Shown: positions 1 to 17,250 of the stretch, piece after piece
Layout: each line of letters opens with the position of its first letter
Numbering within the stretch: the stretch's first letter is position 1
DNA from: a virus
Reading direction: 5' to 3' (one strand)
UHGV virus genome: UHGV-0121713
DNA: 20,464 nt
The notes under the pieces: generated by a model
What the model was told of the DNA's origin: nothing
Database searches by the model: none
Seen by the model: the letters and a program-made list of their open reading frames with translations, nothing else
Position numbers and translations under genes: made by a program

Positions 1-9
1 TTAGCAAGG

Positions 10-29
10 TTGTGTACATTTGTACACAA
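10..29. promoter_or_regulatory. Perfect palindrome TTGTGTACA-tt-TGTACACAA just upstream of rcdA; candidate TetR-family (auto)operator
   Basis: Seen in sequence: 9-bp arms at 10..18 and 21..29 are exact reverse complements, about 20 bp upstream of the rcdA ATG. Operator role is inference from typical TetR autoregulation. Confidence 0.35.
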
Positions 30-49
30 TTGCAGAGAGAGGAAATGAC

Positions 50-586
50 ATGCGTCGCGCTAACGATCCGCAACGGCGAGAAAAAATTATCCAGGCCACG
101 CTGGAGGCGGTGAAACTTTACGGAATACATGCTGTTACGCACCGCAAAATTGCTACCCTTGCCGGGGTACCGTTGGGATCGATGACCTACTATTTTTCAG
201 GAATTGATGAGTTGTTACTGGAGGCGTTCAGCAGTTTTACTGAGATCATGTCCCGGCAATATCAGGCATTTTTTAGCGATGTTAGTGATGCTCCGGGCGC
301 ATGCCAGGCTATCACCGATATGATCTACAGCTCACAGGTTGCAACGCCGGATAACATGGAGCTGATGTACCAGCTCTACGCGCTGGCTAGCCGAAAACCG
401 CTATTAAAAACGGTAATGCAAAACTGGATGCAGCGCAGTCAGCAAACGCTCGAACAATGGTTTGAACCCGGAACCGCCCGCGCGCTTGATGCGTTTATTG
501 AGGGGATGACGCTGCATTTTGTCACCGACCGTAAGCCGCTATCGCGCGAGGAGATTTTGAGGATGGTTGAGAGGGTTGCAGGGTAG
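50..586 (+). CDS. rcdA: TetR-family transcriptional regulator RcdA (YbjK), 178 aa
   Basis: Translation [35 protein letters not shown]... has an N-terminal TetR-type HTH and matches my recollection of E. coli YbjK/RcdA. ATG at 50 follows an AGGAA Shine-Dalgarno; the ORF-track start at 20 is a TTG upstream extension. Confidence 0.85.
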
Positions 587-602
587 TAGATAAGTTTTAG
601 AT

Positions 603-616
603 AACAAAAAACCCAT
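603..616. repeat. Candidate attL core: 14-bp direct repeat AACAAAAAACCCAT, identical copy at 17637..17650
   Basis: Exact 14-mer found at both prophage boundaries (603..616 and 17637..17650), each forming the A-run plus the 5' arm of a terminator hairpin. Confidence 0.45.
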
Positions 617-631
617 TTATGTAAATGGGTT
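603..631 (-). terminator. Intrinsic terminator downstream of int (minus strand), overlapping the attL core
   Basis: Perfect hairpin aacccattta / taaatgggtt at 610..631, preceded on the + strand by an A-run (605..610), i.e. followed by a U-run on the minus strand. Confidence 0.5.
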
Positions 632-690
632 AGTGAAAACAACGACTTGCAAGATAATCAATAAGTTAGGTTGGTGGTCAGTGGTGGTTA

Positions 691-1743
691 TTACGGGGTA
701 ATGCCAACCGCTGCCGCCACTTTGTCGCCACTTGGCAGCGTTGCCAGAGGATTGAAACGGAGCGCCGTTTCCAGATGATCCGGTGCCAGATGTGCGTAAC
801 GCATAGTCATTTTTATATCGTGGTGTCCGAGAATTTTTTGTAAGGCCAGAATGTTTCCACCCGACATCATGAAGTGCGCCGCAAACGTATGGCGCAGAAC
901 GTGTGTGAGTTGACCGCGAGGGAGCACGATAGACGTTTTTTCCATCACGGATAAAAATTGAAAATAGCAGTCTGTGAAGAAATTGAACCCATCAAGCGCC
1001 ATGATCTCTTCGTAAAGCTCTTTACTGATAGGGATGCTTCTGTTTTTCTTCCCCTTCGTTCTTACAAAGGTAATTCGGTATTTGGTCACCTGTGAACGAG
1101 TAAGATTTACGGCTTCTCGCCAGCGTGCGCCTGTGCTTAAGCATATCTTAACTACCAGTGCCAGAATTGGGTCCTGACGTTTGCAATCAGCCAGTAATTC
1201 AACAATCTGCTCATGGGTAAGCCATGCCATCTCTTTTTCTGCGATGGTGAATTTTCGCATGTTCTCCAGTGGGTTCGGATACGACCATTCGCCCAGGCGG
1301 GATAGTTCGCTAAAAACACTACTTAGATAGCTTTGCTCCAGGTTAATGGTGACCGGGCTTGCTCCTTTCTTCCATTTCTCGCTGAAGTAGATCTCACCTG
1401 TCAGGCGTTTATCTCGATAGTGGGCAAACATTTTAGAGGTTAGATCAGTTGCAAGGGGATTGCCCAGAGCGTCAACCATCAGCAGCAATTTGTCATAGAC
1501 ATGCTGCCCAGCAGTCAGTGATTTACCATGTAGTTTGAACCATAGCTCAACCACGTCTTTCAGTGTTCGACGATCCACTGATTCACCTAGCCAGGGCTTT
1601 GCTTCGGTTTCTTCCATCGTGTGACGCTCAAAAGCCAGTGCTTCGCCTTTGGTGGCGAATTGTTTACGCACACGACGCCCACTACGTCCGGCGGGGTAAC
1701 ATTCGCAAAGCCATTTTCCTGTGGTGAGTTTTCGTACAGCCAT
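691..1743 (-). CDS. int: Tyrosine site-specific integrase, P2/186 family, about 350 aa
   Basis: Translation from MAVRKLTTGKWLCECYPAGRSGRRVRKQFATKGEALAFERHT resembles the P2 Int N-terminus. The C-terminal region carries R...HxxR...Y catalytic-type residues (LRHTFAAHF...MRYAHL). The internal ATG at 1743 is preceded by GGAGGG, so the ORF-track start at 1821 is probably an upstream extension. Confidence 0.9.
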   Translation of the reverse strand: MAVRKLTTGKWLCECYPAGRSGRRVRKQFATKGEALAFERHTMEETEAKPWLGESVDRRTLKDVVELWFKLHGKSLTAGQHVYDKLLLMVDALGNPLATDLTSKMFAHYRDKRLTGEIYFSEKWKKGASPVTINLEQSYLSSVFSELSRLGEWSYPNPLENMRKFTIAEKEMAWLTHEQIVELLADCKRQDPILALVVKICLSTGARWREAVNLTRSQVTKYRITFVRTKGKKNRSIPISKELYEEIMALDGFNFFTDCYFQFLSVMEKTSIVLPRGQLTHVLRHTFAAHFMMSGGNILALQKILGHHDIKMTMRYAHLAPDHLETALRFNPLATLPSGDKVAAAVGITP

Positions 1744-1931
1744 AAAAAATGCCCTCCAATAGAGAGCATTTTTACTGTATGTATAACCAGTGTCAATGTA
1801 TGAAATCCTGCGACCATACATCTCACTGAAGCCATAATGAAGTAGGCTATTCTTTTTGCTATGTGATCATGTAACTTTTGCGGTTAACCTGTGGCTCATT
1901 TTTATTTTAGGCGCAGATATAAAAGCAAAAG

Positions 1932-2123
1932 TTATCGTGAGTTTTTAGTACAGATTTTTTTGGATTTACTAATAGTTCCATCATTGCAAACGAATTTGCC
2001 ATCAGAGGTACAGTGAGAAACACCTCCCTTTTTCCCTGAGCAGGGATAATTTCTAGCATAGGTAGCTAGTGGGTTTAATAACAAAGAACATGACAAAACC
2101 ACAAAAAATACCTTACCAAGCAT
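1932..2123 (-). CDS. Small cysteine-rich protein with a predicted signal peptide (63 aa), immediately downstream of cI; candidate lysogenic-conversion (moron) gene
   Basis: [23 protein letters not shown] then a Cys/Lys/Gly-rich mature part with 4 Cys. GGGAG Shine-Dalgarno about 8 nt upstream of the ATG; the start lies 15 bp after the cI stop on the same strand. Confidence 0.5.
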
Positions 2124-2138
2124 AATTTACTCCCGGTA

Positions 2139-2708
2139 CTATTTAACATACTTGACTGTTAAACTTATAATTTTACCAATTATTTCAATGTCTTCTATCT
2201 TACATTCAAAGGCTCTGTTTCCACCCTCGACGAAGATTCTTCCACCGGGTAAACGAGTAATGTCACGGATCGTTATTTCGCCATCAATACTTATTACCCA
2301 TTTACCATCACGTATATCATCAAATTCCTTATCACAAATAAATTCAGAATTATTATCTGTGATTACAAAAAGATTCTTGAATGCCGACGGTAGAAATTCT
2401 CTATCGAAAATATAAAAACCGTCTTCACACAAGGCCCCATCAGATAATACATATTTAGCAACTTCCATAGTATTTGTATTACCTGAAGTTTGCTTTGAAC
2501 CATGCCCGGTTGTGAGCCAATTAAGCGAGGTGCCTGTTTCAAGGGCGCACTGGATTACCCATTCTGCTGGGAATGAGTCACGCATGTAGCGTGTGGCGAG
2601 TGTACTTTTAGAGATTCCTAAATGATCGCACAACGCCTGTCGAGTCTTGAATCCATAAGCTTCTACCATGCGCTCTATGGCGCCTCGTCCGCCTTTCTCC
2701 AAATTCAT
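2139..2708 (-). CDS. cI: Phage 186 CI-like immunity repressor (about 189 aa)
   Basis: N-terminal HTH-like segment (GFKTRQALCDHLGISKSTLATRYMRD), size and position between int and a divergent apl/cII operon as in coliphage 186. ATG at 2708 has a GGAG Shine-Dalgarno; the ORF-track start at 2714 is GTG. Confidence 0.75.
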   Translation of the reverse strand: MNLEKGGRGAIERMVEAYGFKTRQALCDHLGISKSTLATRYMRDSFPAEWVIQCALETGTSLNWLTTGHGSKQTSGNTNTMEVAKYVLSDGALCEDGFYIFDREFLPSAFKNLFVITDNNSEFICDKEFDDIRDGKWVISIDGEITIRDITRLPGGRIFVEGGNRAFECKIEDIEIIGKIISLTVKYVK

Positions 2709-2732
2709 GGTCACTCCAAGTGAACTTTTATC

Positions 2733-2761
2733 TTGACGATTTCACCGTGCGATCGTATGTT
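2733..2761 (+). promoter_or_regulatory. Candidate early lytic promoter (pR-like) in the cI/apl switch region
   Basis: TTGACG (2733..2738), 17-bp spacer, TATGTT (2756..2761), directed toward apl/cII. Flanked by CGATCGTAT (2750..2758) and CGATCCGTAT (2784..2793) direct repeats that could be operator elements. Confidence 0.4.
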
Positions 2762-2833
2762 TATGGTGTTCACAAAATACAAACGATCCGTATTCGTCCT
2801 GATTAATCATCATTAAACGAGGAATGTTGCATC

Positions 2834-3055
2834 ATGAGACCTAACATTTCAATCACTCTTACCACGCCTCATGTGACTATTGAACGCTATAGCGAGCTGA
2901 CAGGGCTATCCATCGATACCATCAATGACATGTTGGCTGATGGACGCCTTATCCGTCACCGTCTGCGCAAAGATAAAAAACGCGAAAAAGTGATGATCAA
3001 CATAGCAGCAATGACCGTTGATGCGCTTTCAGAATGCAATCTAAACCTTAATTAG
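2834..3055 (+). CDS. apl: Apl/Cox-like excisionase and transcriptional regulator (73 aa)
   Basis: Small basic protein, first gene of the rightward operon divergent from cI, GAGG Shine-Dalgarno 9 nt upstream. Assignment is mainly positional, by analogy to 186 apl. Confidence 0.55.
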
Positions 3056-3087
3056 TTCGATTCTGAAATACATCAGAGGCATTGACC

Positions 3088-3597
3088 ATGTTTGATTACC
3101 AAGTTTCCAAACATCCACATTTTGATGAAGCCTGTCGTGCATTTGCACTGCGCCACAATCTGGTGCAACTGGCAGAACGTGCAGGCATGAATGTGCAGAT
3201 TCTGCGGAACAAGCTGAACCCAGCTCAGCCTCATTTATTAACCGCACCAGAAATCTGGCTGCTTACCGATCTGACTGAAGATTCAACGCTGGTAGATGGT
3301 TTTCTGGCACAGATTCATTGTCTGCCATGTGTACCGATTAATGAGGTGGCAAAAGAGAAACTGCCACATTACGTCATGAGTGCAACCGCAGAGATCGGGC
3401 GTGTTGCTGCAGGTGCGGTGTCTGGCGATGTAAAAACCTGTGCCGGTCGTCGTGATGCTATCAGCAGCATTAACTCTGTAACACGACTGATGGCGCTGGC
3501 GGCTGTTTCATTGCAGGCCCGTTTACAGGCTAATCCTGCGATGGCGAGTGCAGTTGATACCGTGACTGGCCTCGGTGCTTCATTTGGTTTGCTGTGA
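3088..3597 (+). CDS. cII: Phage CII-like transcriptional activator (186 CII family), about 169 aa
   Basis: Translation [45 protein letters not shown]... matches my recollection of 186 CII in sequence and size. ATG 3088 has an AGAGG Shine-Dalgarno at 8-nt spacing; the ORF-track start at 3082 is TTG. Confidence 0.75.
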
Positions 3598-3604
3598 GGT
3601 GCTT

Positions 3605-3805
3605 ATGCTGACGAAAGAACCATCATTTGCATCGCTGCTGGTTAAACAAAGCCCGGCAATGCATTACGGTCACGGCTGGATCATGGGGGAGGATGGTAAA
3701 CGCTGGCATCCGTGCCGTTCACAAGATGAATTGCTGGCAGAACTATCTACGAAAAAACGGGGGAACAAATGGCTATTGAAGGCACTGCGGCGACTGTTCC
3801 ATTAA
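3605..3805 (+). CDS. Small early-operon phage protein (66 aa), occupying the position of fil in 186
   Basis: ORF in the early operon directly after cII; start ambiguous (GTG 3575 or ATG 3605). Function not recognisable from sequence. Confidence 0.4.
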   Translation: MLTKEPSFASLLVKQSPAMHYGHGWIMGEDGKRWHPCRSQDELLAELSTKKRGNKWLLKALRRLFH

Positions 3806-4110
3806 GCCCCGGTGAACGCCTGAATGGACTTAATCACATTGCGGAGTTAAGGGCGAAAGTTTTTGGCCTGAATATTGAGTCAGAGCTTGAGCGGTTTATT
3901 AAAGATATGCGTGATTCACGGGATATTAATAGCGAACAAAATAAACGGGCACTGGCTGCCATATTCTTTATGGCAAAAATTCCAGCTGAACGTCATAGCA
4001 TCAGCATTAATGAGCTGACCACTGACGAAAAGCGGGAGTTGATTAAAGCAATGAATCATTTTCGTGCAGTGGTGAGCTTATTTCCCAGACGGCTAACCAT
4101 GCCGAATTAA
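3769..4110 (+). CDS. Hypothetical early-operon phage protein (113 aa)
   Basis: ATG with GGGGGA Shine-Dalgarno 5 nt upstream; overlaps the previous ORF end, suggesting translational coupling. Confidence 0.5.
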   Translation: MAIEGTAATVPLSPGERLNGLNHIAELRAKVFGLNIESELERFIKDMRDSRDINSEQNKRALAAIFFMAKIPAERHSISINELTTDEKRELIKAMNHFRAVVSLFPRRLTMPN

Positions 4111-4177
4111 CCAACTAATGAAATTAATGGCGTAAACCCGCCGGGCATCCCTTTATCTAAATTCAGGAGAATTGATT

Positions 4178-4411
4178 ATGCGTAATATTGAAACCCTCTC
4201 GACCAAAACCGGACCGGATGACGCAGGGCTTAATATTTTACTGACAGAGGCTCGTCTGGAAGAACGCCGGGCAAGGGCTGAAGCAATGGCAGCTCGCCTT
4301 GATAGCTTGGCGTGTCATATCACATCCCGCCAGCTAACCCACGTCGAAGCGGCAGAACTGCTTCGTGTGACTGCTGAAGCAATCCAGAACGAAGCGCAGG
4401 AGATCCACTAA
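4178..4411 (+). CDS. Hypothetical early-operon phage protein (77 aa)
   Basis: ATG 4178 preceded by AGGAGA at 7-nt spacing (ORF-track start 4172 is TTG). Stop overlaps the next start (TAATG). Confidence 0.5.
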   Translation: MRNIETLSTKTGPDDAGLNILLTEARLEERRARAEAMAARLDSLACHITSRQLTHVEAAELLRVTAEAIQNEAQEIH

Positions 4412-4638
4412 TGGCTGATGCAATGGATCTCGTACAGCAGCGCGTTGAAGAAGAACGCCAACGCCATATCCGTGCTGCCCGTGCCAAAACGCCGGGCGTG
4501 TCCCGCGTGCTTTGCATTGAGTGTGAAGCGCCAATTCCGCCAGCACGCCGCCGTGCCATTCCGGGTGTGCAGCTTTGCATTACCTGTCAGGAAATCGCAG
4601 AGCTGAAAGGCAAACATTACAACGGAGGTGCTGTATGA
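4411..4638 (+). CDS. TraR/DksA-family C4 zinc-finger protein (75 aa)
   Basis: CIEC...(17 aa)...CITC four-cysteine motif in a small basic protein; typical phage/conjugative TraR-like protein found before gene A in P2-like phages. Confidence 0.7.
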   Translation: MADAMDLVQQRVEEERQRHIRAARAKTPGVSRVLCIECEAPIPPARRRAIPGVQLCITCQEIAELKGKHYNGGAV

Positions 4639-5492
4639 GCACCATCCTGAAATGGGCGGGAAATAAAACTGCCATAATGTCCGAACTGAAAAAACATCTT
4701 CCTGCTGGCCCGCGACTGGTTGAACCTTTCGCGGGTTCCTGTGCTGTGATGATGGAGACGGATTATCCCAGCTATCTGGTTGCGGATATTAATCCTGATT
4801 TAATCAACCTCTATAAAAAGGTTGCCGCTGATTGTGAATCGTTTATATCTCGCGCCAGAGTTTTATTTGAGATCGCAAACAGGGAGGTGGCTTATTACAA
4901 CATAAGGCAGGAGTTTAATTACTCAACTGAAATTACTGATTTCATGAAAGCGGTATATTTCCTGTATCTCAATCGTCACGGTTACCGTGGTTTATGTCGC
5001 TATAACAAGAGCGGGCATTTCAACATTCCCTACGGTAATTATAAAAATCCGTATTTCCCTGAAAAAGAAATTCGCGCATTTGCAGAAAAGGCCCAGCGAG
5101 CAACGTTTATCTGCGCCAGCTTTGATGAAACGCTGGCGATGTTGAAGGCGGGGGATGTGGTGTATTGCGATCCGCCGTATGACGGTACGTTTTCCGGCTA
5201 TCACACTGACGGCTTCACTGAAGATGACCAGTATCACCTGGCATCTGTTCTTGAACATCGGTCATCAGAAGGACATCCGGTCATTGTTTCTAACAGTGAC
5301 ACATCCCTGATCCGTTCGCTGTATCGCAATTTTACTCACCACTACATCAAGGCAAAACGCAGCATCGGTGTGGCAGCTGGCGAGGGTAAATCAGCAACAG
5401 AAATCATTGCTGTTTCCGGGCCGCGCTGCTGGGTGGGATTTGATTATTCGCGTGGCGTGGATAGTTCTGCCGTGTACGGAGTACGTGCATGA
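4635..5492 (+). CDS. dam: DNA N6-adenine methyltransferase, Dam (D12 class) family, about 285 aa
   Basis: N-terminal LKWAGNK...EPFAGSCAV (SAM-binding motif) and the catalytic DPPY tetrapeptide (CDPPYDGTF). ATG 4635 overlaps the previous stop (ATGA) and its stop overlaps the gene A start. Confidence 0.85.
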
Positions 5493-7903
5493 GTCATGCC
5501 GATATGAACAACTGCTGCGGCTTTAACGAAGCTGCCGCATCGTTCTCATGGAACAGCTCGAAAAAGGCCATTAACCCTTATCTGGACCCGGTGGAAGTTG
5601 CGCCGGTTTCTACGCTTTCAAACCTGATCACTCTGTACGCTGCCGATAACGAGCAGGAACAGCTGCGCCGTGAGGCGCTGAGTGATCAGGTCTGGGAGCG
5701 TTATTTCTTTAATGAATCCCGTGATCCTGTCCAGCGCGAAATGGAACAGGATAAGCTCATTAGTCGGGCAAAGCTGGCGCATGAGCAGCAGCGTTTTAAT
5801 CCGGATATGGTCATTCTGGCGGACGTCAACGCCCAGCCTTCCCATATCAGCAAGCCGCTGATGCAACGTATTGAATACTTCAGCAGCCTGGGCAGGCCAA
5901 AGGCTTATTCCCGCTATTTACGTGAGACGATTAAGCCATGTCTGGAACGACTGGAGCATGTACGCGACAGTCAGCTATCTGCATCTTTTCGCTTTATGGC
6001 AAGCCATGAAGGGCTGGACGGCCTGCTGATCCTGCCTGAAATGAGTCAGGATCAGGTGAAACGCCTGTCCACCCTGGTAGCTGCGCATATGAGTATGTGC
6101 CTTGATGCCGCTTGTGGCGATTTGTATGCCACCGATGACGTTAAGCCAGAAGAAATCCGCAATACATGGGAAAGGGTGGCAGCGGAAACCCTGCGTCTGG
6201 ATGTCATCCCGCCTGCGTTTGAGCAACTCCGTCGGAAAAGAAACCGCCGTAAACCCGTGCCCTATGAACTCATTCCGGGTTCGCTGGCGCGTATGTTGTG
6301 CGCCGACTGGTGGTATCGGAAATTATGGAAGATGCGTTGCGAATGGCGGGAAGAGCAGTTGCGTGCTGTCTGCCTTGTCAGCAAAAAAGCATCTCCCTAT
6401 GTCAGCTATGAAGCCGTGTTGCATAAACGTGAGCAGCGCCGTAAGTCGCTGGAGTTTTTCCGTTCTCATGAACTGGTGAACGAAGACGGCGACACGCTAG
6501 ACATGGAGGATGTGGTAAACGCCAGCAGCAGCAACCCTGCGCATCGCCGCAATGAGATGATGGCCTGTGTTAAAGGTCTGGAGCTTATCGCGGAAATGCG
6601 CGGTGACTGCGCCGTTTTCTACACCATCACCTGTCCGTCACGTTTCCATTCCACGCTAAATAACGGCAGGCCCAACCCGACCTGGACAAATGCGACGGTA
6701 AGACAAAGCAGCGATTATCTGGTCGGTATGTTTGCTGCATTTCGTAAGGCGATGCACAAAGCCGGGTTGCGCTGGTATGGCGTGCGGGTGGCTGAGCCGC
6801 ATCACGACGGCACAGTTCACTGGCACCTGTTGTGTTTCATGCGCAAAAAAGACCGCCGCGCCATTACAGCATTGTTGCGTAAGTTTGCTATCCGTGAAGA
6901 CCGCGAGGAGCTGGGCAATAACACGGGGCCGCGCTTTAAGTCTGAGCTGATTAACCCGCGCAAAGGAACGCCGACAAGCTACATAGCGAAATACATCAGT
7001 AAGAACATTGACGGGCGTGGTCTGACTGGCGAGATCAGCAAGGAAACGGGTAAATCTCTGCGTGATAACGCTGAATACGTGAATGCCTGGGCGTCTTTGC
7101 ATCGTGTTCAGCAATTCCGCTTCTTTGGCATTCCGGGGCGTCAGGCTTACCGTGAACTGCGATTGCTGGCTGGTCAGGCGGCAAGGCAAAAGGGGGACAA
7201 AAAAGCAGGTGCGCCGGTACTGGATAACCCGCGCCTTGATGCCATCCTGGCTGCTGCTGATGCTGGTTGTTTTGCCACCTACATCATGAAGCAGGGCGGC
7301 GTACTGGTTCCCCGTAAATATCACCTCATCAGAACCGCTTATGAAATCAACGAAGAGCCGACCGCCTATGGCGATCACGGCATTCGTATTTATGGCATCT
7401 GGTCACCCATTGCAGAGGGCAAGATCTGCACTCATGCAGTGAAGTGGAAAATGGTTCGTAAAGCCGTTGACGTTCAGGAGGCGGCAGCCGACCAGGGCGC
7501 TTGCGCCCCTTGGACTCGTGGCAATAACTGTCCCCTTGCTGAAAATTTGAACCAACAGGAGAAAGATAAATCAGCTGATGGGGACACCAGAACGGACATT
7601 ACCCGCATGGATGACAAGGAGTTGCACGATTACCTGCACAGTATGAGCAAAAAAGAGCGCCGGGAACTGGCTGCAAGGTTACGCCTGGTGAAACCGAAAC
7701 GGCGTAAAGACTACAAACAGCGAATTACAGACCATCAGCGACTGCAGCTCGTCTATGAGCTGAAGTCCAGAGGATTTGATGGTAGCGAGAAAGAGGTCGA
7801 TTTACTCCTTCGCGGCGGCAGTATTCCGTCAGGAGCAGGCCTGCGTATCTTCTATCGGAACCAGCGTTTGCAGGAAGATGATAAGTGGCGGAACCTGTAT
7901 TAA
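5489..7903 (+). CDS. A: P2 gpA-family replication initiation (rolling-circle nicking) protein, 804 aa
   Basis: Large protein at the end of the early operon with the size and position of P2/186 gene A. Contains a HWHLLCF-type histidine-hydrophobic motif and tyrosine-rich motifs ([10 protein letters not shown]) typical of rolling-circle initiators. Confidence 0.85.
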
Positions 7904-7972
7904 TTACGCGGGTTAACAATTCGTGCTCTTAATAATACCAGGCATATCAGGCTGATGAACGTAAAAAAACGT

Positions 7973-8015
7973 TTTACATCAGTAATATTATTATATACTG
8001 TAAATATAAACAGTA
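7973..8015 (+). promoter_or_regulatory. SOS-regulated promoter: -35 TTTACA (7973..7978), -10 TATACT (7994..7999), overlapping LexA box TACTGTAAATATAAACAGTA (7996..8015)
   Basis: 20-bp site matches the LexA consensus CTGT-N8-ACAG with an AT-rich centre and overlaps the -10, the classic SOS operator arrangement. It lies inside the ORF-track ORF beginning at 7955, which argues against that start. Confidence 0.7.
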
Positions 8016-8056
8016 GTTATCTATACAGTATTGTTTGCGGTGTCATAGGAGGAAAG

Positions 8057-8245
8057 ATGCAGGACTATTTTTTGGAGTCTTTGAAGCTCCAGCGCATTGA
8101 TTTTTTTCTTAAGCTTGTAGCGGCTAGTGAGTGTAGTGATGAAGAGAAGGGGCTGGCTCTGCAGTGGGTTTCTGAACTGACAGATGAACTCATGGCAAAA
8201 ATCAGAACCCACGAATACAACCGCTCAATGGATGTCATCAGCTGA
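8057..8245 (+). CDS. Small protein (62 aa), first gene of the LexA-controlled operon; possibly part of a Tum-like antirepressor module
   Basis: ATG 8057 preceded by AGGAGG; downstream of the LexA box; followed 10 bp later by the DinI-like gene. Confidence 0.45.
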   Translation: MQDYFLESLKLQRIDFFLKLVAASECSDEEKGLALQWVSELTDELMAKIRTHEYNRSMDVIS

Positions 8246-8255
8246 GGTGACTTTT

Positions 8256-8489
8256 ATGCGCATTGAAATAATGATCGATAAAGAGCAGAAGATTAGCCAG
8301 TCTACACTGGACGCCCTTGAATCCGAGCTTTACCGCAATCTGCGCCCTCTGTATCCCAAAACGGTAATCCGTATCCGTAAAGGTAGCTCTAACGGTGTGG
8401 AACTGACCGGACTGCAACCGGACGAAGAAAGAAAACAAGTGATGAAAATTATGCAGAAGGTGTGGGAAGACGACAGCTGGCTGCATTAA
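8256..8489 (+). CDS. DinI-family protein (77 aa), probably SOS-inducible; comparable to the DinI-like part of 186 Tum
   Basis: MRIEIMIDK...LDALESELYRNLRPLYP...VWEDDSWLH resembles E. coli DinI (MRIEVTIAK...) in length and in the acidic tryptophan-containing C-terminus. GAGGTGA Shine-Dalgarno upstream. Confidence 0.7.
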   Translation: MRIEIMIDKEQKISQSTLDALESELYRNLRPLYPKTVIRIRKGSSNGVELTGLQPDEERKQVMKIMQKVWEDDSWLH

Positions 8490-8933
8490 GAAATGTTGCC
8501 CCCAGGAGGATTCATTCTAATGGGGGCTAGTTTGGGCAACGAGTGAAACGAGGCGTAAGGTGGGTAATCATTTTGATAAGTGATCGCCCACTTTGTGCCA
8601 AAAGCGGACATCGCAGATATGACAATATGTTAGTCAACCGCGATTAGATCAGTCAGTTGGAGATGGGGGGAAGTTACAAAAACTTGTCGTCCGCCATCTC
8701 CGACTACGGGTATTCTTAACTGTACATGCTCTTTCAATCGATGATTTTTGAGTAAGTGACTAACCTATTGTTTTGATAGTAATTAAACGTATAAACGTGC
8801 GGAGTTAATTTGAAAGTTATGTGTCTATGTTTGACAAGCAAAATTTTAAAGATTGGTTTTATCCACAGGTAATTTATGCTATTAATAGCCTCAAGCCCTG
8901 TAATTATTTTTATTTAAATGGATAAATTTGAAA

Positions 8934-11054
8934 ATGAGTACATATCATAATGATCAGCCAATACTAGGTGGTCAAAATGACCCCGATTTATTAAACAGGC
9001 TCGATTTTGCAAATCACTTGGCAAATATTCTACTATTAAATCACAATGATGATTGCCTTACTGTATCTATAGAGGCAGAGTGGGGATATGGTAAAACGTC
9101 AGTGATAAATCTTATAAAAGGTGCTTTGAATGAAAAGGAGTTCTTACCAATAATAATAGAATATAATCCATGGCTGGCCGGTCAACCTGAATCCTTGATT
9201 CAGGATTTTTTATTACAGTTCTCTTCACAACTAAATATTAAAGACAATTCAAAAGCTGCTTTGGAAGCTTCAAAAGAATTAATTGCATACTCCAATCTCT
9301 TCAGTGTAGCAAAACTTATTCCAGGGACAGAACCTTGGGCATCTATCATAGAAAAAGTCCTCTCTAATTTTGGGAGTGCTACTAAAAAGATTGCTGAATT
9401 AAAAAAACTGGATCTTTTAGGTAGAAAAAAACAAGTAGAGAAGGCAATAAAAAAAATAAAAAATCCTATTGTGGTAATAATTGATGATATTGATCGATTG
9501 ACTCCTGCAGAAACTTTTCAAGTTTTACGATTGGTTAAAGCAGTTGCAGATTTCTCAGGAACTTCTTTTTTACTTGCATTTGATCCTAATTATTTGATTT
9601 CTGTGCTTGATAAAAATAATATCGTCAATTCTTCGGAGTATCTTAATAAAATTGTTCAACTTCGAGTCCCACTTCCTGTAATCTCAGAAAGGGGTATGAA
9701 TGAACTTGCAAATGCAGAACTGGAAAAGATAGCTAATAAATCTTTAACTGACAGATTCGAAAGTGATCAAGAAAGACTAAGCTGGATTTATCATAATTAT
9801 TTTAAAAAACTAATTAAGAATCCGAGAGAGTTAAAAAGATTTTTTAACCATTTGAGATTCGTTTTAGAGCAAATTGAAGGGCAGGTATGTTTTTCTGATC
9901 TCTTTGCTTTATCTCTGGTCGCCACTAAATCGAGTTTGGTATACGAGCATATTAAAAGCACACCAGAGGCATATATAGGGAAGAGATTCACTAATGATGG
10001 CCTTTTGATGGATAAACCTCAAGATATTGTGGATAGATTTAGTGATGAGCGAAATAAGAAACTGAGTAATTTTTCTGATCAAGAGCGTTCAGTGATGCAG
10101 GAACTCTTAGGAGATATTTTCCCACTTCTACAGTCAAGCGGGTATTCTCATTATGGGGTTTCTGATCCCGATACAGCAGGAAGGGTTTCTGCACCACAAA
10201 GGCTTCATATTGCGTTTCATTATAAAACTCCAGCAGGGTATATTTCTGATCATGATATTATCAGTTTCATTAATGGAGATGTCAAAAGAAACGAATTTCT
10301 AAGAGATGTGCTCTCGCAAAATGCAGAAGAAAGATTTTTTGAAATGATGAATAATTATTCGAGTTATTGTAAGGATAATAGTTTTGAAATATTAACGTGT
10401 ATTTATGATACTTTTCTGTTTTCTCAAGAATTGAAATCCTCATTGGAAAGAAACTATGGTTTTTTGACAAAAGATCTTTATAGAAGGATGAATTGGCTCA
10501 CTAATAAGGTAATATCTGAAAGTGATGATAAATATGGGTTAATAAAGGGGGTTGTAGGTAGGCATGAGAATGCGCCACTTGGTGCAGACGTATTATGCCA
10601 AGCTCGTAAACAGATTCAAAATGGATGGAATGACAAAATATGGGTTAGTATTGAAGAATTGGCTGAACTTGAAGGTATCTTTCAACAGGTGGCTATTAAA
10701 GTTTTAAGTGATAAAATATATTTTGATTATCATCTTGAATCTCATATATTTTTCGAATTAAAGAGAGTTTCATCTCAATTTACATCAGAGTTTATTGCTT
10801 CTGTATTATCAAGTGATGGCCTGATTAGGATGTGTGAGATTATTGGTGAAACAGGTAGTGATTCAACAAATGGCCCTTATTTTAAGTTTGATGAAATTTA
10901 CTTCGGGGAAATACTTGATGTGAATGAACTTCGAAATAAAGCGAAAAATTTAGATTTTTCAATTTATCCCACACGCATTCAAGCTGTACTTAAGAGTATT
11001 CTGGATGGACAAAAATATTATTTGAGAGATGCAACTGTTGGTGAAGATTGGTAA
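8934..11054 (+). CDS. KAP-family P-loop NTPase (PifA-like), about 706 aa; candidate abortive-infection/defence protein
   Basis: Walker A EAEWGYGKTS (about 9072..9101) and KAP-type Walker B IVVIIDDIDRL (about 9465..9500). Gene is visibly AT-rich with several A7-A8 tracts, unlike the flanking phage backbone. ORF-track start 8928 is TTG; the first ATG is 8934. Confidence 0.7.
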   Translation: MSTYHNDQPILGGQNDPDLLNRLDFANHLANILLLNHNDDCLTVSIEAEWGYGKTSVINLIKGALNEKEFLPIIIEYNPWLAGQPESLIQDFLLQFSSQLNIKDNSKAALEASKELIAYSNLFSVAKLIPGTEPWASIIEKVLSNFGSATKKIAELKKLDLLGRKKQVEKAIKKIKNPIVVIIDDIDRLTPAETFQVLRLVKAVADFSGTSFLLAFDPNYLISVLDKNNIVNSSEYLNKIVQLRVPLPVISERGMNELANAELEKIANKSLTDRFESDQERLSWIYHNYFKKLIKNPRELKRFFNHLRFVLEQIEGQVCFSDLFALSLVATKSSLVYEHIKSTPEAYIGKRFTNDGLLMDKPQDIVDRFSDERNKKLSNFSDQERSVMQELLGDIFPLLQSSGYSHYGVSDPDTAGRVSAPQRLHIAFHYKTPAGYISDHDIISFINGDVKRNEFLRDVLSQNAEERFFEMMNNYSSYCKDNSFEILTCIYDTFLFSQELKSSLERNYGFLTKDLYRRMNWLTNKVISESDDKYGLIKGVVGRHENAPLGADVLCQARKQIQNGWNDKIWVSIEELAELEGIFQQVAIKVLSDKIYFDYHLESHIFFELKRVSSQFTSEFIASVLSSDGLIRMCEIIGETGSDSTNGPYFKFDEIYFGEILDVNELRNKAKNLDFSIYPTRIQAVLKSILDGQKYYLRDATVGEDW

Positions 11055-11170
11055 TACTTTTATAGGCATGCTTAGAGATGATGGAGTATCTTTTTCTCCC
11101 TTTTGAGGAAGTGATTTCCAACTGGGCATGGATGCCACATCAAATGGACAGTTGTTGTCACCTGTCAGTT

Positions 11171-11240
11171 AGCTGCTATTTGTTTATAGCAGCTGAAAGC
11201 CCACTACATAGTTACACCAGAAGGAGTAACAATGTAGTGG
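11171..11240. repeat. Two adjacent strong inverted repeats (hairpins) in the intergenic region after the KAP gene
   Basis: IR1: agctgctat (11171..11179) / atagcagct (11186..11194), perfect 9-bp stem. IR2: ccactacatagttac (11201..11215) / gtaacaatgtagtgg (11226..11240), 14 of 15 bp paired with AAGGAG in the loop. The 10-mer CCACTACATA recurs at 11478..11487. Confidence 0.5.
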
Positions 11241-11496
11241 ATAGCTAAATTTGACCACCTTAACAGATATGTTAATTTCCCCCCTCGCTCACAGCGGACT
11301 TTCATCTTTGTAAACCCTTATAATTCGCTTTTCAGCGGTCATTCAGATACGGATTTACGCTTTCCTTGGCAGTGCATGACTATGACGCATGAGATCGCAT
11401 GATCGTTTGAGGATCGTTTTTGCTGAGGCCAGCCAGAACTGGCGTGCTTTTGCTTATGTCATGCAGGTGCATGAAAACCACTACATAAAGTGGGCA

Positions 11497-11515
11497 GGCG
11501 TGGCGGGGATACGAG
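11497..11515. other. Candidate cos (cohesive-end) remnant of the P2/186 family
   Basis: GGCGTGGCGGGGA (11497..11509) matches the first 13 nt of the 19-nt P2/186 cohesive end as I recall it (GGCG[A/T]GGCGGGGAAAGCA[C/T]); the next 6 nt diverge. It sits in a local GC-rich patch inside otherwise AT-rich cargo. Not verified by alignment. Confidence 0.3.
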
Positions 11516-11645
11516 CGCGCGCTAACTCTTGGCTTTGTTTCATAATCAAAAATGTGATCATTGAGATTATTCTTAATTTTATGTTTGTCTATGAAATATC
11601 ATTTCGCTTAACATTGTTTGAGTTAGGACTACATGAGAATAAAGA

Positions 11646-12221
11646 ATGCTTTTACCCGTAAGTGTTACATCGTGTGGCTTGTATCACCCCTACTGGCATT
11701 TGGGAGAGCGCAACCCTCATAGCGATGAACTATCAAGGCAGATGATGGATTTTAAGGATGAAAATAATCGTAATCATCAAAGGGCTATTAACCGTTTTTC
11801 TCGATTAGCTATAGATAAGGTTGGGCGGTTAGTAATCAGAGGTGGCGGTGGGCGTTTTGTTGAGTCTCCTTTTTCGATAGCAGTCGTCCCATCTCACACT
11901 GAAGGCAGAATTTCACCGGCTTTGATTGAGGTCGCCGAGCGAATCGTAAATGTTCACCGTCGGGGCATTGTTGATTGCTGTTTGGAAAGAACACGCACTG
12001 TTCCTAGCGCACATCGTGAAGGAGGAGATCGCTCAATTACTGGTCACATGTCTAGTATCAGAGTTAGGGGTGGTAACCTCATGGGGCGAAATGTGTTACT
12101 ACTAGATGATGTTAAAACAACAGGCGGTAGTTTGTCTGCGTGTTTTTATTTACTGGAGTCTGCAGGAGCTGGAGTTATAATGCCATTAGCTCTGCTAGAA
12201 ACTGCAAACTATGAGGAGTAG
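11646..12221 (+). CDS. Type I phosphoribosyltransferase (PRTase) domain protein, 191 aa; candidate defence effector (ShosT-like / ComF-like)
   Basis: PRPP-binding signature VLLLDDVKTTGGSL (hydrophobic stretch-DD-x-x-TTG). In-frame TAA two codons upstream fixes the 5' limit. Overlaps the next gene by 11 nt. Confidence 0.7.
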   Translation: MLLPVSVTSCGLYHPYWHLGERNPHSDELSRQMMDFKDENNRNHQRAINRFSRLAIDKVGRLVIRGGGGRFVESPFSIAVVPSHTEGRISPALIEVAERIVNVHRRGIVDCCLERTRTVPSAHREGGDRSITGHMSSIRVRGGNLMGRNVLLLDDVKTTGGSLSACFYLLESAGAGVIMPLALLETANYEE

Positions 12222-13185
12222 CAAAGTGCACTCAGAAGAATTAAAAAATACACTTGGATTAGCTATTCAAATCGGGAAGCTAGCATCTGATCAAAGTGTA
12301 TTGAAATTCTTTGAGCTTATTGATTTTGATGTTATTCGTGATATACGCGACTTAACTGAGATGGTTAATAGCCACGGGTTTCTAAAAGATAAAATATCTG
12401 AGACTGATTTTCTAATAGCGAATGCTGAATTGGAGAACCACCATGTTAATGGTGTGGAGCTAATACCATATGGGTCTGAATTCTATCCTCTTAGTTTAGC
12501 GTTTACTCCTAATCCACCATCAATTCTCTACATAAAAGGGGATAAAAGTATACTAAAAGAATTGCCGGGTGTCGCAATTGTAGGATCCCGTGATACTTCC
12601 CCTGCAGGGGAAGAAATAACGAGGCGAATCACTAATCAGATAGTGTCTGCTGGGTATATTGTTGTAAGTGGGTTAGCAATAGGCACTGATGCGAATGCTC
12701 ATAAGGCAACGTTACAAGCAAAAGGAAAAACCATTGCTGTCTTGGCGCATGGTCTTGAGGAGGCTAAGCCGAAGCAAAACAGTCGACTTGCTCAAGAGAT
12801 TCTGGATAAAGGTGGTGCATGGATTTCTGAGTATCCTATGGGGCGACCGGCCCAGAAACAATCATTTGTACAAAGAAATCGGATACAAGTTGGATTATCT
12901 GCAGGTTCAATTTTAATCGAGGCTGCGTTAAATAGCGGAACGATAACTCAAGCTGAGTTTGCAAATAAGGCTAAAAGACCAGTGTTTGCGGTTGTACCTC
13001 ACCTACCTAATAATCCGCTTAATCTTAATTGTGAGGGAACAGTTGATTTAGTTAAGAGCAACATGGCTAGAGCGTTAAAAACAAAACGGGATTATGATGA
13101 TGTGATTATGATCATAAATGAGTCTCGGGAGTATTTGTTAGAGCTAAAATGGCCAGGGAAACAGAGTACATTAGACTTGATTTAA
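12211..13185 (+). CDS. DprA/Smf-like (SLOG-superfamily Rossmann) protein, about 320 aa; candidate defence partner (ShosA-like)
   Basis: DprA core motifs VAIVGSRDTSPAGEE and IVVSGLAIGTDANAHKA, then TIAVLAHGLEE and RNRIQVGLS. Start is ATG 12211 or GTG 12226 (the latter has a GGAG Shine-Dalgarno at 7-nt spacing). Confidence 0.75.
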   Translation: MRSSKVHSEELKNTLGLAIQIGKLASDQSVLKFFELIDFDVIRDIRDLTEMVNSHGFLKDKISETDFLIANAELENHHVNGVELIPYGSEFYPLSLAFTPNPPSILYIKGDKSILKELPGVAIVGSRDTSPAGEEITRRITNQIVSAGYIVVSGLAIGTDANAHKATLQAKGKTIAVLAHGLEEAKPKQNSRLAQEILDKGGAWISEYPMGRPAQKQSFVQRNRIQVGLSAGSILIEAALNSGTITQAEFANKAKRPVFAVVPHLPNNPLNLNCEGTVDLVKSNMARALKTKRDYDDVIMIINESREYLLELKWPGKQSTLDLI

Positions 13186-13209
13186 AGCGCCTCTTTTAGA
13201 GGCACTTTG

Positions 13210-13866
13210 CTAAATTTGATATCTCTCGAATTTTATAATTTCTTCACCGCTCCAATGATTAAATTCTTTCATTCTTTTTTGTAATGGTAATAATTCATTT
13301 TTCACAAATACCTTACTAGCTTTTTCTACATCCCCAAATCCCCCAACATTATTAGGCATTATCCCCATCATCTGTGGCGGAACGCGATGTGCTGCCATCA
13401 TGTCATCCCGGCTCACGTTCTTGATATTTAGAAACTCATCCTTCGCCGCAACTTCTGACAAAGGGATGATCTGAAGGCCGTCCTTTTTGCCGTTAGGCGA
13501 GTACATAAACAGGTTGCGGAAGTTACCCGGACCTTTGGCACTTTTCATTGCATTGCGGAGGTTGTTCACGTCCTCCTGGTTCTGCGCAGCATCGGTCATG
13601 TACATGATGAAGCCTGCATGACTACCGTTAATGTAATACTTGCGGCGGAACAGCGTGGCGGACTCATTGAGCAGGGCGGACGGAATGGCAGAAAGATAGC
13701 TGGGCAGGCCGTAGATCTCCTGGTTAATGTCCGGTTCCATCAGATGAAAAATGCTGCCTTTCGTGAACTGATACGGCTGGGTTGTCATACCGTATTGCAC
13801 AAACCAGTAGGTATCCAGGTCTAACCCGCGTCGGGTGTATTTTGCCAGAGCAGGCTCAAGGGCGAC
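13210..13866 (-). pseudogene. Q: 3' fragment of the portal gene Q (P2 gpQ family), 5'-truncated by deletion
   Basis: Encodes about 218 aa of portal-like C-terminal sequence (...YINGSHAGFIMYMTD...LQIIPLSEVAAKDEF...). The open frame runs upstream into unrelated sequence; the N-terminal third and the adjacent terminase P are absent. Upper boundary is approximate. Confidence 0.65.
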
Positions 13867-14054
13867 AACGACAACACCGGATTGAGGAACTGAAACGTGA
13901 GAACGAGGATTTACGCCGCTGGGCTGATACACCTTTGCCTGCTGACATTATCCGGCTGCGGGAACGCCCCACACTCACCGGAGGTGCAGATTACCGTCAG
14001 TGGTTGTCCGCGAGTGACGCCGTGTCGGCTGGGACAGGCAGCGCCGCGCACTAA
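13866..14054 (+). pseudogene. lysB: 3' fragment of lysB (Rz-like inner-membrane spanin), 5'-truncated
   Basis: Coiled-coil, charged C-terminal peptide ...HRIEELKRENEDLRRWADTPLPADIIRLRERP directly upstream of R, as in P2 (lysA-lysB/lysC-R-S). No holin or endolysin upstream. Boundary approximate. Confidence 0.45.
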
Positions 14055-16149: not shown

Positions 16150-17250
16150 GTGAATTTCAGCTCTGAACTGCTTAACAAAGGCAACAAAACTCCCGCATTC
16201 AGCATCAGTATTGAGGGCAGGGATATCACCACTGTGCTGGATAACCGCCTGATGAGTCTGACGCTGACGGACAATCGGGGCTTTGAAGCGGACCAGCTTG
16301 ATCTGGAGCTGGACGACGCCGATGGAAAAATAGCGCTGCCGCGCCGTGGTGCGGTCGTTACGCTGGCGCTGGGCTGGAAGGGGCAGCCGCTTTTCCCGAA
16401 AGGGGCATTCACGGTGGACGAGATTGAACACACTGGCGCACCGGACCGCCTGACTATCCGGGCGCGAAGTGCTGATTTTCGGGAAACGCTGAATACCCGC
16501 CGTGAAAAGTCGTGGCACAAGACCACTGTCGGGGAAGTGGTGAAGGAAATAGCTGTGCGGCACAAACTGAAGATGGCACTGGGTAAAGACCTGTCAGATA
16601 AACCCGTGGAACATATAGACCAGACCAATGAGAGTGACGGCAGTTTTCTGATGCGGCTGGCGCGCCAGTACGGTGCTATTGCGTCGGTGAAAAATGGCAA
16701 TCTGTTATTCATCCGGCAGGGACAGGGTAAAAGCGCCAGCGGTAAACCACTACCGGTGATCACTATCACACGTAAGGACGGCGACAGTCACCGCTTTACC
16801 CTGGCAGATCGCGGAGCCTATACGGGCGTAATTGCCAGTTGGTTGCATACCCGCGAACCCGCGAATAAAGAAAGCACCACGGTGAAGCGTAAGCGCAGGA
16901 CTAAGAAGCAGAAGAAAGAGCCGGAAGCGAAGCAGGGCGATTACCTGGTGGGTACGGATGAAAACGTGCTGGTACTTAATCGCACCTATGCCAACCGGAG
17001 CAACGCCGAACGGGCGGCAAAAATGCAGTGGGAACGCCTGCAACGCGGCGTTGCGTCATTCTCGCTACAACTGGCGGAAGGGCGGGCAGATCTCTACACG
17101 GAAATGCCAGTGAAAGTCAGTGGCTTTAAACAGCTGATAGATGATGCGGAATGGACCATTACGACTCTGACACATACCGTCAGCCCGGATAACGGTTTTA
17201 CGACCAGTCTGGAGCTTGAAGTGAGGATTGATGATTTCGAAATGGAATGA
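16150..17250 (+). CDS. D: Tail protein D (P2 gpD / late control D family), 366 aa
   Basis: Position immediately before ogr at the prophage right end, and size, match P2 gpD. GTG start with GGGAGG Shine-Dalgarno at 9 nt, overlapping the stop of a short upstream U-like remnant frame. Confidence 0.75.
   Translation: MNFSSELLNKGNKTPAFSISIEGRDITTVLDNRLMSLTLTDNRGFEADQLDLELDDADGKIALPRRGAVVTLALGWKGQPLFPKGAFTVDEIEHTGAPDRLTIRARSADFRETLNTRREKSWHKTTVGEVVKEIAVRHKLKMALGKDLSDKPVEHIDQTNESDGSFLMRLARQYGAIASVKNGNLLFIRQGQGKSASGKPLPVITITRKDGDSHRFTLADRGAYTGVIASWLHTREPANKESTTVKRKRRTKKQKKEPEAKQGDYLVGTDENVLVLNRTYANRSNAERAAKMQWERLQRGVASFSLQLAEGRADLYTEMPVKVSGFKQLIDDAEWTITTLTHTVSPDNGFTTSLELEVRIDDFEME

Follow-up and report, generated by a model that had tools for sequence, protein, structure and literature searches.

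The virus genome UHGV-0121713 carries a gene for a KAP-family P-loop NTPase and, further along the same strand, a gene pair encoding a phosphoribosyltransferase (PRTase)-like protein and a DprA-like protein. The DNA between them (positions 11055–11645) raises the question of what separates these two sets of cargo genes, and whether they were acquired together. The whole stretch analysed, 20,464 nucleotides (nt) in length, is here called the window; it is a P2-family prophage sitting between rcdA and ybjL of Escherichia coli. A preliminary description, made from the sequence alone, proposed a remnant of a cohesive-end (cos) site and paired hairpins that split the cargo into modules on opposite phage arms. 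The comparisons reported here indicate, with a probability of about 0.9, that positions 11371–11522 are the cos site of a Fels-2/186-type P2-family (Peduoviridae) prophage, forming a conserved island between two separately exchanging cargo slots. Sequence identities, positions, breakpoints and co-occurrence counts are given as observed in this analysis.

A cos site between the cargo genes

11371–11522, plus strand: predicted cos core, conserved across Fels-2/186-type P2-family phages (89–94% identity to 77 phage records)
11497–11515, plus strand: predicted 19-nt 5' cohesive end GGCGTGGCGGGGATACGAG (19/19 with the SEN8 cos; aligned with the annotated P2 and 186 cos)

Over its 152 bp the core matches Fels-2, SEN8, MLG42 and 813R9 at 135–143 positions, 186 at 95 and P2 at 87. 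The Cartapus record begins inside the core, so that this phage was compared over 62 bp only; in this 62-bp core the identities are 56–61/62 in the Fels-2 group (Cartapus 56/62), 50/62 in 186 and 46/62 in P2. The core is present in 1241 of 5426 complete E. coli genomes. The preliminary description had pointed to GGCGTGGCGGGGA at 11497–11509 as the start of a P2/186 cohesive end. This sequence is indeed found there, as the sole exact copy in the window, and it begins a 19-nt cohesive-end sequence that is identical to the SEN8 cos; the similarity to P2 and 186 extends beyond these 13 nucleotides. The full 19-mer is shared at all positions with SEN8, Fels-2, Cartapus, MLG42 and 813R9, at 15/19 with 186 and at 14/19 with P2, and the CGCGCGC that follows it is also identical in the first five phages. 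A run of 25 nt is common to the window and phage 186.

When the genome ends of the P2 and 186 records are joined, right to left, and aligned with the window, an architecture common to all three emerges, consisting of ..GTGCAT(G/T)AAAACC, a short inverted repeat, GGCG(T/A)GGCGGGGA.. and finally (C/T)GCGCGC. Conservation reaches 126 bp to the left of the top-strand cut and 26 bp to the right. Both records annotate cos at the position aligned with 11497–11515, and their ends fall exactly at 11496|11497. The check proposed in the preliminary description, for this sequence at the termini of related phage genomes, came out in favour: the base equivalent to 11496 is the last of the SEN8 record, and the base equivalent to 11497 is the first of those of SEN5 and Smp131. 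SEN8 positions 1–19, annotated 'putative cos site', align to 11497–11515, and the first 59 bases of the Cartapus record are annotated as a putative cos homologous to that of P2. The SEN8 genome paper names ggcgtggcggggatacgag as the SEN8 cos, which is the same 19-mer as in the window (PMC5427200).

The position and composition of the core are consistent with this assignment. The prophage order is A, DinI, KAP, cos, PRTase/DprA and Q, as in the P2 prophage. The G+C content of 11371–11522 is 53.3%, similar to the phage backbone, and rises to 59.7% at 11461–11522, compared with 34.0% in the left cargo, 26.8% in the intergenic stretch on the right and 27–41% on the right side overall. The GC-rich patch in AT-rich cargo remarked on earlier is therefore real. 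Alignment with the P4 cos was restricted to the core and added nothing. An open reading frame (ORF) running across cos (11389–11661, 90 amino acids) has no family match and was treated as spurious.

If the site works as its homologues in P2 and 186 do, the terminase of the phage, with gpM as its small and gpP as its large subunit, would bind some 125 bp left of the cut, where GTGCATG/TGCAT motifs are repeated. The same comparison predicts nicks 19 nt apart, at 11496|11497 on the top strand and 11515|11516 on the bottom strand. The left end of the virion DNA would then begin with GGCGTGGCGGGGATACGAG, and the linear virion map would place PRTase-DprA followed by the portal gene Q at the left end, with the KAP NTPase ~440 bp from the right end.

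Several observations weigh against this reading of the region. The SEN8 cos was assigned at annotation and not by end mapping (PMC5427200). A few core positions of the window are not those of the Fels-2 group, among them one cut-adjacent change that matches 186. A stem formed by GCCCGCCAG and CTGGCGGGC and followed by TTTTG (11428–11446) is perfect in Fels-2, MLG42 and 813R9, whereas two adjacent unpaired and non-compensated changes weaken it in the window and in the prophage of E. coli strain BE311. The two hairpins upstream of the core, discussed below, are unusually strong for chance structures and may have a function. Finally, the terminase has been lost from the window prophage, leaving cos without its cognate machinery in cis, so that the resident prophage cannot use it. 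Given the differences from the Fels-2 group, full cos activity is predicted from identity to the apparently complete BE311 prophage.

These points also bear on the status of the site, which the preliminary description called a remnant. A dead scar with chance or partial similarity to cos, unusable by any terminase, would fit the heavy deletion of the window prophage and the two unpaired positions in a stem that relatives keep perfect, and truly decayed copies of cos do exist elsewhere, such as that of E. coli IBS28 with three changes in the 19-mer. However, positions 1–13869 of the window, including the whole core, are 99.99% identical to the apparently complete BE311 prophage, and the core itself is 100% identical. 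Furthermore, the 19-mer and its CGCGCGC are identical to those of isolated, plaque-forming phages, and the core agrees with the Fels-2 group at 135–143 of 152 positions. A dead remnant is thus very improbable. Judged by its sequence, the cos site is intact, and the decayed part is the prophage that surrounds it.

The IBS28 locus (L159, 3865–5657) is a true cos remnant. There, a PRTase-DprA pair of 75% identity adjoins a decayed cos, GGCGTGTCAGGGATAAGAG, and the two lie beside an integrase fragment in a degraded island.

Two cargo slots with separate histories

8934–11054, plus strand: KAP-family P-loop NTPase (PifA-like), cargo of the left slot (Pfam KAP_NTPase; PADLOC PifA; RefSeq annotation of the identical BE311 locus)
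11523–11645, plus strand: AT-rich (27% GC) start of the right slot (homology to KAP prophages with other right cargo stops at 11521–11524)
11646–12221, plus strand: PRTase-like (ShosT-like) ORF, first gene of the right cargo (PADLOC ShosT, 3.6e-14)
12211–13185, plus strand: DprA-like (ShosA-like) gene, second gene of the right cargo (Pfam DNA_processg_A, 1e-60; PADLOC ShosA, 2.8e-70)

The cos core is flanked by a left slot at 8609–11270, which contains the KAP/PifA-like NTPase, and a right slot at 11523–13227, which contains the PRTase and DprA genes. The NTPase matches Pfam PF07693 (2e-46) and, over residues 3–449, the PADLOC PifA profile (6.7e-65), and its gene has a G+C content of 33%. By these matches the left cargo is a KAP NTPase, or PifA-like, putative defence gene. 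The two genes of the right cargo overlap by 11 nt, and profile matches to both identify the pair as a predicted ShosTA (DprA-PRTase) system. The PRTase-like ORF is detected by the PADLOC ShosT profile alone and has no Pfam hit at 1e-3; it is intact, yet lacks annotation in the RefSeq records of the identical BE311 locus. The AT-rich 11523–11645 presumably contains the promoter region of the PRTase-DprA operon.

On the virion map, the left slot would be the slot at the right genome end, extending from the DinI/tum terminator to cos and corresponding to the tin-old position of P2 and the orf97 position of 186. The right slot would be the one at the left genome end, extending from cos to Q. The preliminary description had already placed the KAP gene in the tin/old position at the right genome end, which agrees with the orf97 correspondence, and the PRTase/DprA pair between cos and Q at the left end, as is borne out by the gene order.

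Breakpoints fall close to the core on either side. Where KAP is retained but the right cargo is an AAA ATPase, RES or PIN gene, genomes match the window up to 11521–11524 and again from 13219–13229. Genomes that keep PRTase-DprA with other left cargo match up to 8598–8609 and resume at 11271/11287. With Fels-2, MLG42 and 813R9 the shared sequence is limited to 11371–11527. The KAP 3' flank was found in 18 complete E. coli genomes, where the right cargo is DprA in 5, an AAA ATPase in 9, RES in 2, PIN in 1 and HIRAN in 1. ShosTA at ≥95% identity occurs in 23 complete E. coli genomes, 5 of which also contain KAP.

Acquisition of KAP, cos and ShosTA jointly as a single block would account for the identical block seen in these five complete genomes. 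It is contradicted by the other right cargo in 13 of the 18 KAP carriers and the other left cargo in 18 of the 23 ShosTA carriers, and by breakpoints that hug the cos core on both sides. In addition, ShosTA is linked to cos at the level of 75% identity, while the KAP flank varies by ≤1%. Because the 75%-identical ShosTA of IBS28 is still joined to a decayed cos, the linkage of ShosTA to cos appears much older than that of KAP. A single joint acquisition is, of all the alternatives considered here, the least probable. The comparisons indicate instead that the two slots swap their contents independently and that the cargo modules have separate histories. This agrees with the two independent acquisitions suggested previously, as only 5 genomes carry both modules, compared with 18 for KAP and 23 for ShosTA.

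Much of this arrangement is known. A gpA-gpQ defence hotspot adjacent to cos has been described, and a DprA+PRTase pair from it was validated as anti-phage defence (Rousset 2022, PMC9122126). The interval from cos to Q is an insertion hot spot of P2-like phages, as exemplified by ctx of phiCTX and ORF1–4 of phiRSY1 (PMC5694545), and in 186-like prophages the DNA between cos and the terminator is replaced, according to work cited in PMC5694545. Since both slots and cos are already in the literature, the core finding is correct but not new; the cos site itself is ordinary, matches established P2 biology and matters little on its own. The refinement offered here is that the published single gpA-gpQ hotspot appears to behave as two slots, one per virion arm. 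This two-slot view is useful for delimiting defence systems and for predicting the contents at each end of the packaged DNA.

Paired sites at the boundaries of the left slot

8586–8609, plus strand: T2-type site GCCCACTTTGTGCCAAAAGCGGAC, consensus GTCCGCT-NNGTGCCARR-AGCGGAC, left edge of the left slot (homology to prophages with other left cargo stops at 8598–8609)
11276–11299, plus strand: decayed T1-type site TTTCCCCCCTCGCTCACAGCGGAC, consensus GTCCGCT-YTTCGCTCAT-AGCGGAC, right edge of the left slot (homology starts at 11271/11287)

Tracing the end of the KAP cassette led to two related 24-bp motifs, T1 and T2, which have the inverted arms GTCCGCT/AGCGGAC in common and different conserved 10-nt centres. 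T2 is present at the same place in all four backbones compared, and divergence follows directly. On the other side, homology to KAP cassettes from non-P2 contexts ends at 11280–11295, and an intact T1 occupies the same backbone position in contig L260. The KAP cassette is also bounded by T2 and T1 in its Enterobacter and Yersinia contexts. The real boundaries of the left slot thus appear to be T2 (8586–8609) and the decayed T1 (11276–11299), and not the hairpins.

The same motifs lie at backbone/cargo breakpoints in hundreds of prophage contigs, including the right-end slot and the Z/fun slot of P2-like prophages and slots of lambdoid prophages. The T2 pattern alone was found in >120 IMG/VR contigs. 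In arrays, cassettes are joined by T1, 18 nt and T2, with a fixed start-to-start spacing of 40–42 nt. The Z/fun slot of a P2-like prophage, for instance, reads T2, one gene, T1-T2, a DUF3800 gene and T1, between the tail-fibre assembly and tail sheath genes, and the cassettes of other arrays contain SIR2, AbiJ-like, HEPN, NB-ARC/TPR and ASCH genes. The T1-T2 composite occurs in 1012 of 5426 E. coli genomes, at 1–4 places each, and is always unannotated. Further examples of T1/T2 loci are L088 (5300–8504), L069 (9562–12666), L031 (3263–5862), L028 (1424–4723) and L160–L273.

T2 approximates the reverse complement of T1 (19/24), and a single imperfect hairpin is formed by the 66-nt T1-18-T2 composite (−16 kcal/mol, z −5.0). 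Of 47 cases, 45 fall between genes. The motifs lack a uridine tract (U-tract), which rules them out as intrinsic terminators. Rfam searches of motif-bearing loci returned nothing at the motifs. Around the right (cos-Q) slot and the diverged IBS28 ShosTA locus neither motif was found at ≤5 mismatches, and the right slot therefore does not use T1/T2. No description of the motifs was found by motif sequence, accession of the small recombinase discussed below or general terms, although literature coverage was limited and novelty is unproven.

The window also contains two direct repeats of ~21 nt at 11285–11345 (TCGCT..CAGCGG.C.TTCA at 11285 and 11325), the first of which is the decayed T1. The second may be a deleted T2, making the region a decayed T1-T2 composite. 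At the same place, the relative L018 carries a canonical terminator, GTCCGCTTTG-CTCA-AAGCGGAC followed by TTTGTGCTTT, derived from the same sequence.

Crossover signature and a candidate recombinase

The position of exchange was examined in 108 T2 instances (40 upstream and 88 downstream clusters) and 119 T1 instances, by asking which flank each variable position follows. Agreement was as follows.

T2 positions 8–9: upstream flank (backbone) 67/81; downstream flank (cargo) 24/31
T2 positions 16, 17 and 24: upstream flank (backbone) 37/81; downstream flank (cargo) 30/31
T1 positions 1, 8 and 9: upstream flank 39/45; downstream flank 34/74
T1 positions 17, 21 and 23: upstream flank 32/45; downstream flank 62/74

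In T2 the left-hand positions track the backbone and the right-hand positions track the cargo, and T1 is the mirror image. Since the variable positions track opposite flanks, the point of exchange would lie inside the invariant cores of T1 and T2. Single backbones are found with many cargoes; the P2 Z/fun backbone is associated with 16 cargo clusters among 17 instances.

A tyrosine recombinase of 200 amino acids, consisting of a catalytic domain only, is encoded inside or beside T2...T1 arrays in three loci (L090, 4339–4941; L089, 9047–9649; L069, 14212 to the end). It matches Pfam Phage_integrase (5e-19), with weak matches to XerC, XerA and invertase families. Among 68 IMG/VR loci that encode a homologue (L091–L158), many of them related to one another, 23 contain T1/T2 within 8 kb, compared with none in shuffled controls. 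The recombinase gene is absent from the P2-like T1/T2 loci, so that the enzyme, if it acts on T1/T2, would do so in trans.

It is conceivable, at somewhat less than even odds, that the P2-like left slot, the Z/fun slot and at least two lambdoid slots are delimited by one pair of sites, T2 on the left and T1 on the right, functioning as dedicated junctions at which unrelated mobile elements exchange defence cassettes, a natural counterpart of recombinase-mediated cassette exchange with heterospecific sites, with the 200-amino-acid recombinase possibly catalysing the reaction in trans. Short-homology recombination at a conserved 24-bp linker would yield the same crossover signature, so that a dedicated recombinase is no more than a candidate. 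The mechanism by which defence cassettes are exchanged between P2-like phages, satellites and unrelated elements is stated to be unknown (PMC9122126; PMC13586616). If the proposal is true, the T2/T1 sites would supply the mechanism left open by the papers on the P2/P4 hotspots. As the sites coincide exactly with the breakpoints of several unrelated backbones, the exchange of cassettes at such sites can be tested directly, and these junctions, two of which are in the window, are the part of the locus most worth pursuing.

Two hairpins in the KAP 3' flank

11169–11196, plus strand: hairpin 1, 11-bp stem and 6-nt loop, no U-tract (KAP cassette 3' flank; 9/11 and 7/11 paired in orthologous flanks)
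11201–11240, plus strand: hairpin 2, 18-nt arms with 16 pairs and 4-nt loop, no U-tract (5' arm carries the first CCACTACATA copy)

The two strong hairpins noted upstream of cos in the preliminary description are present and exceed chance as structures. The arms of hairpin 1 (11171–11179 and 11186–11194) are complementary at 9/9 positions and can be extended to 11 pairs at 11169–11196, with an RNA minimum free energy of −15.7 kcal/mol (z −4.1). The arms of hairpin 2 are at 11201–11218 and 11223–11240 (−21.6 kcal/mol, z −7.3). For either hairpin, none of 200 shuffled sequences folds as well. They are located 115–186 nt past the KAP stop codon and ~30–100 nt inside the edge of the KAP cassette. 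Because at least 30 nt separate them from the point where backbone homology resumes, they are part of this cassette, which is at odds with the role in splitting the modules proposed for them earlier. Nor are their stems kept where the cassette has diverged.

In complete E. coli genomes and IMG/VR the hairpins occur only with this KAP module, at ≥99% identity, and IMG/VR scans for the exact stem of either hairpin returned only near-identical E. coli P2-like contigs. In two diverged KAP cassettes the 3' flank can still be aligned (80% and 73% identity). In these flanks hairpin 1 is broken, and of hairpin 2 just the 3' arm sequence survives, the 5' arm being unrelated. Across three diverged lineages, 0/27 pairs are altered on both sides, so no compensatory change was seen. 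The orthologous stretches fold like shuffled sequence (z −0.95 and +0.09), and downstream of KAP homologues at 72–78% identity in GTDB genomes the DNA is unrelated.

A functional terminator or regulatory RNA of the KAP gene, insulating cos from read-through, would be consistent with the strength of these structures and with their location 115 nt downstream of a gene transcribed towards cos, and phage 186 has a terminator, t95b, at an equivalent place. However, neither strand has a U-tract (the plus-strand tails are GAAAGCCC and AUAGCUAAAU), the terminator/promoter scan did not call the hairpins, and an Rfam search of 10900–11800 in E-value mode gave two sub-threshold chance hits only and no match to a hairpin. 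The broken and uncompensated stems of the orthologous flanks and the unrelated sequence downstream of other KAP homologues also argue against it, and a terminator-like relic lies further on, at 11285–11307. The terminator or regulatory RNA raised as an alternative in the preliminary description is accordingly without positive support and is unlikely, if less so than a dead cos. The hairpins therefore appear to be young, lineage-specific palindromes of the KAP 3' flank, belonging neither to cos nor to a module boundary. They are possibly perfected quasi-palindromes, and at most they may slow read-through or protect the 3' end of the KAP mRNA. A search for terminal repeats, inverted or direct, that would link the hairpins to the left edge of the KAP module found none. 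The small ORFs that cross the hairpins match no family and were regarded as spurious.

A decanucleotide shared with cos

The 10-mer CCACTACATA does recur at 11201 and 11478, as reported previously, and is found nowhere else in the window, but its significance does not hold up (P = 0.069). When the 216-nt KAP 3' flank is compared with the 260-nt cos region, 6.9% of dinucleotide shuffles yield a shared word of ≥10 nt; the same test narrowed after the fact to the hairpins and the core gives 1.6%. The repeat could be taken as a partial duplication of cos, or a recombination scar left by insertion of the KAP cassette. GAAA precedes both copies, and the tenth base (A) agrees with cos and not with the partner arm of the hairpin. 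On the other hand, there is no further cos-like sequence around 11201, and a shared 10-mer arises in 6.9% of shuffles. Moreover, the 3' arm of hairpin 2 (..TGTAGTGG) represents an ancestral state, seen in KAP cassettes that lie away from any cos, so the CCACTACATA in the 5' arm is most simply its inverted complement. A duplication or scar is accordingly about as improbable as a dead cos. The recurrence is compatible with chance, and the 11478 copy simply belongs to the conserved sequence of cos.

Overall, what stands of the earlier interpretation is the presence of cos, the slot positions and the separate histories of the modules; the remnant status of cos, the part of the hairpins in the split and a meaningful 10-mer are not supported, the hairpins and the 10-mer being incidental.

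Comparison with known systems

The window cos shares with those of P2 and 186 its position on the genome map, the GGCG(A/T)GGCGGGGA start of the cohesive end, the lead-in ..GTGCAT.AAAACC..AAAG.GGGC., the CGCGCGC/TGCGCGC after the end and, with 186, the identical 25-nt run. It differs from them in the last 6 nt of the 19-mer (TACGAG versus AAGCAT/AAGCAC), and identity over the 152 bp is just 57–63%. The P2 and 186 cohesive ends are 19-nt 5' extensions within a 55-bp core around the cut, in which the recognition sequence falls mostly on the right-end side (Ziermann & Calendar 1990, as cited in PMC5694545). In the Fels-2, SEN8, Cartapus and MLG42 group (Felsduovirus, Elveevirus) the 19-mer and CGCGCGC are identical to those of the window; the remaining differences are a few substitutions, two of them in the conserved stem, and the flanking cargo.

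The left slot is the same variable slot as P2 tin-old (TO) and 186 orf97, from the DinI/tum-side terminator to cos, filled here by KAP. The cargo differs from that of P2, and it is transcribed towards cos, whereas old-tin of P2 is transcribed away from it. Retrons Ec67 and Ec86 also replace DNA between cos and the terminator, to judge from a title cited in PMC5694545 (Dodd & Egan 1996). The PRTase and DprA genes lie between cos and Q, as in the described cos-to-Q hot spot and gpA-gpQ hotspot (PMC5694545, PMC9122126). The published gpA-gpQ analyses treat a single locus, while here the two sides of cos reassort separately.

The closest comparators for T1/T2 are integron attC sites, the heterospecific lox sites used for recombinase-mediated cassette exchange, and the shuffling cassettes of T4 PeSL. 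An attC site, the substrate of IntI, is an imperfect palindrome of 57–141 nt with a RYYYAAC and a GTTRRRY core at its ends. As in these systems, short conserved sites are found at each cassette junction and cassettes form arrays. T1 and T2 have identical arms and different centres, like heterospecific sites, and the palindrome of the composite is attC-like. The T1-18-T2 composite was rejected as an integron attC site, as its arms are GTCCGCT/AGCGGAC, the RYYYAAC/GTTRRRY cores are absent, and there is no IntI, the neighbouring recombinase being 200 amino acids in length.

Cargo homologues and the surrounding prophage

13210–13869, minus strand: 3' part of portal gene Q, truncated by deletion (Pfam Phage_portal; comparison with the intact BE311 prophage)

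Homologues of the KAP protein at 83–89% identity are found in four other kinds of element (L028/L029, L030, L031/L032 and L033). One is a P2-like prophage of Klebsiella oxytoca, in which gpA and the portal gene once more flank the gene; the others are an island in Yersinia that also carries a DUF3987 primase-like gene, a metagenomic contig of lambdoid type and a chromosomal site in Enterobacter.

In the window, the integrase, CI, CII, Dam, replication endonuclease A (5489–7903) and DinI-like genes precede the KAP NTPase (8934–11054); the PRTase-like ORF and DprA follow the cos region, and portal gene Q begins at 13210 on the minus strand. Compared with the BE311 prophage, the window lacks 6.9 kb after 13869; the two sides of this deletion overlap by 6 bp where they meet (13864–13869). 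Lost with it are most of Q, terminase P and the genes for scaffold, capsid, small terminase, head completion and lysis. Another break, at ~15243, lies in baseplate gene V, and most tail genes are also gone; tail-gene fragments and gene D (16150–17250) remain, followed by ybjL. With its terminase, head and other structural genes deleted, the window prophage is decayed. This deletion pattern was found in no complete E. coli genome of the collection examined. The remnant of ~17 kb retains the integrase, replication gene A, cos, D, probably ogr, and both defence modules.

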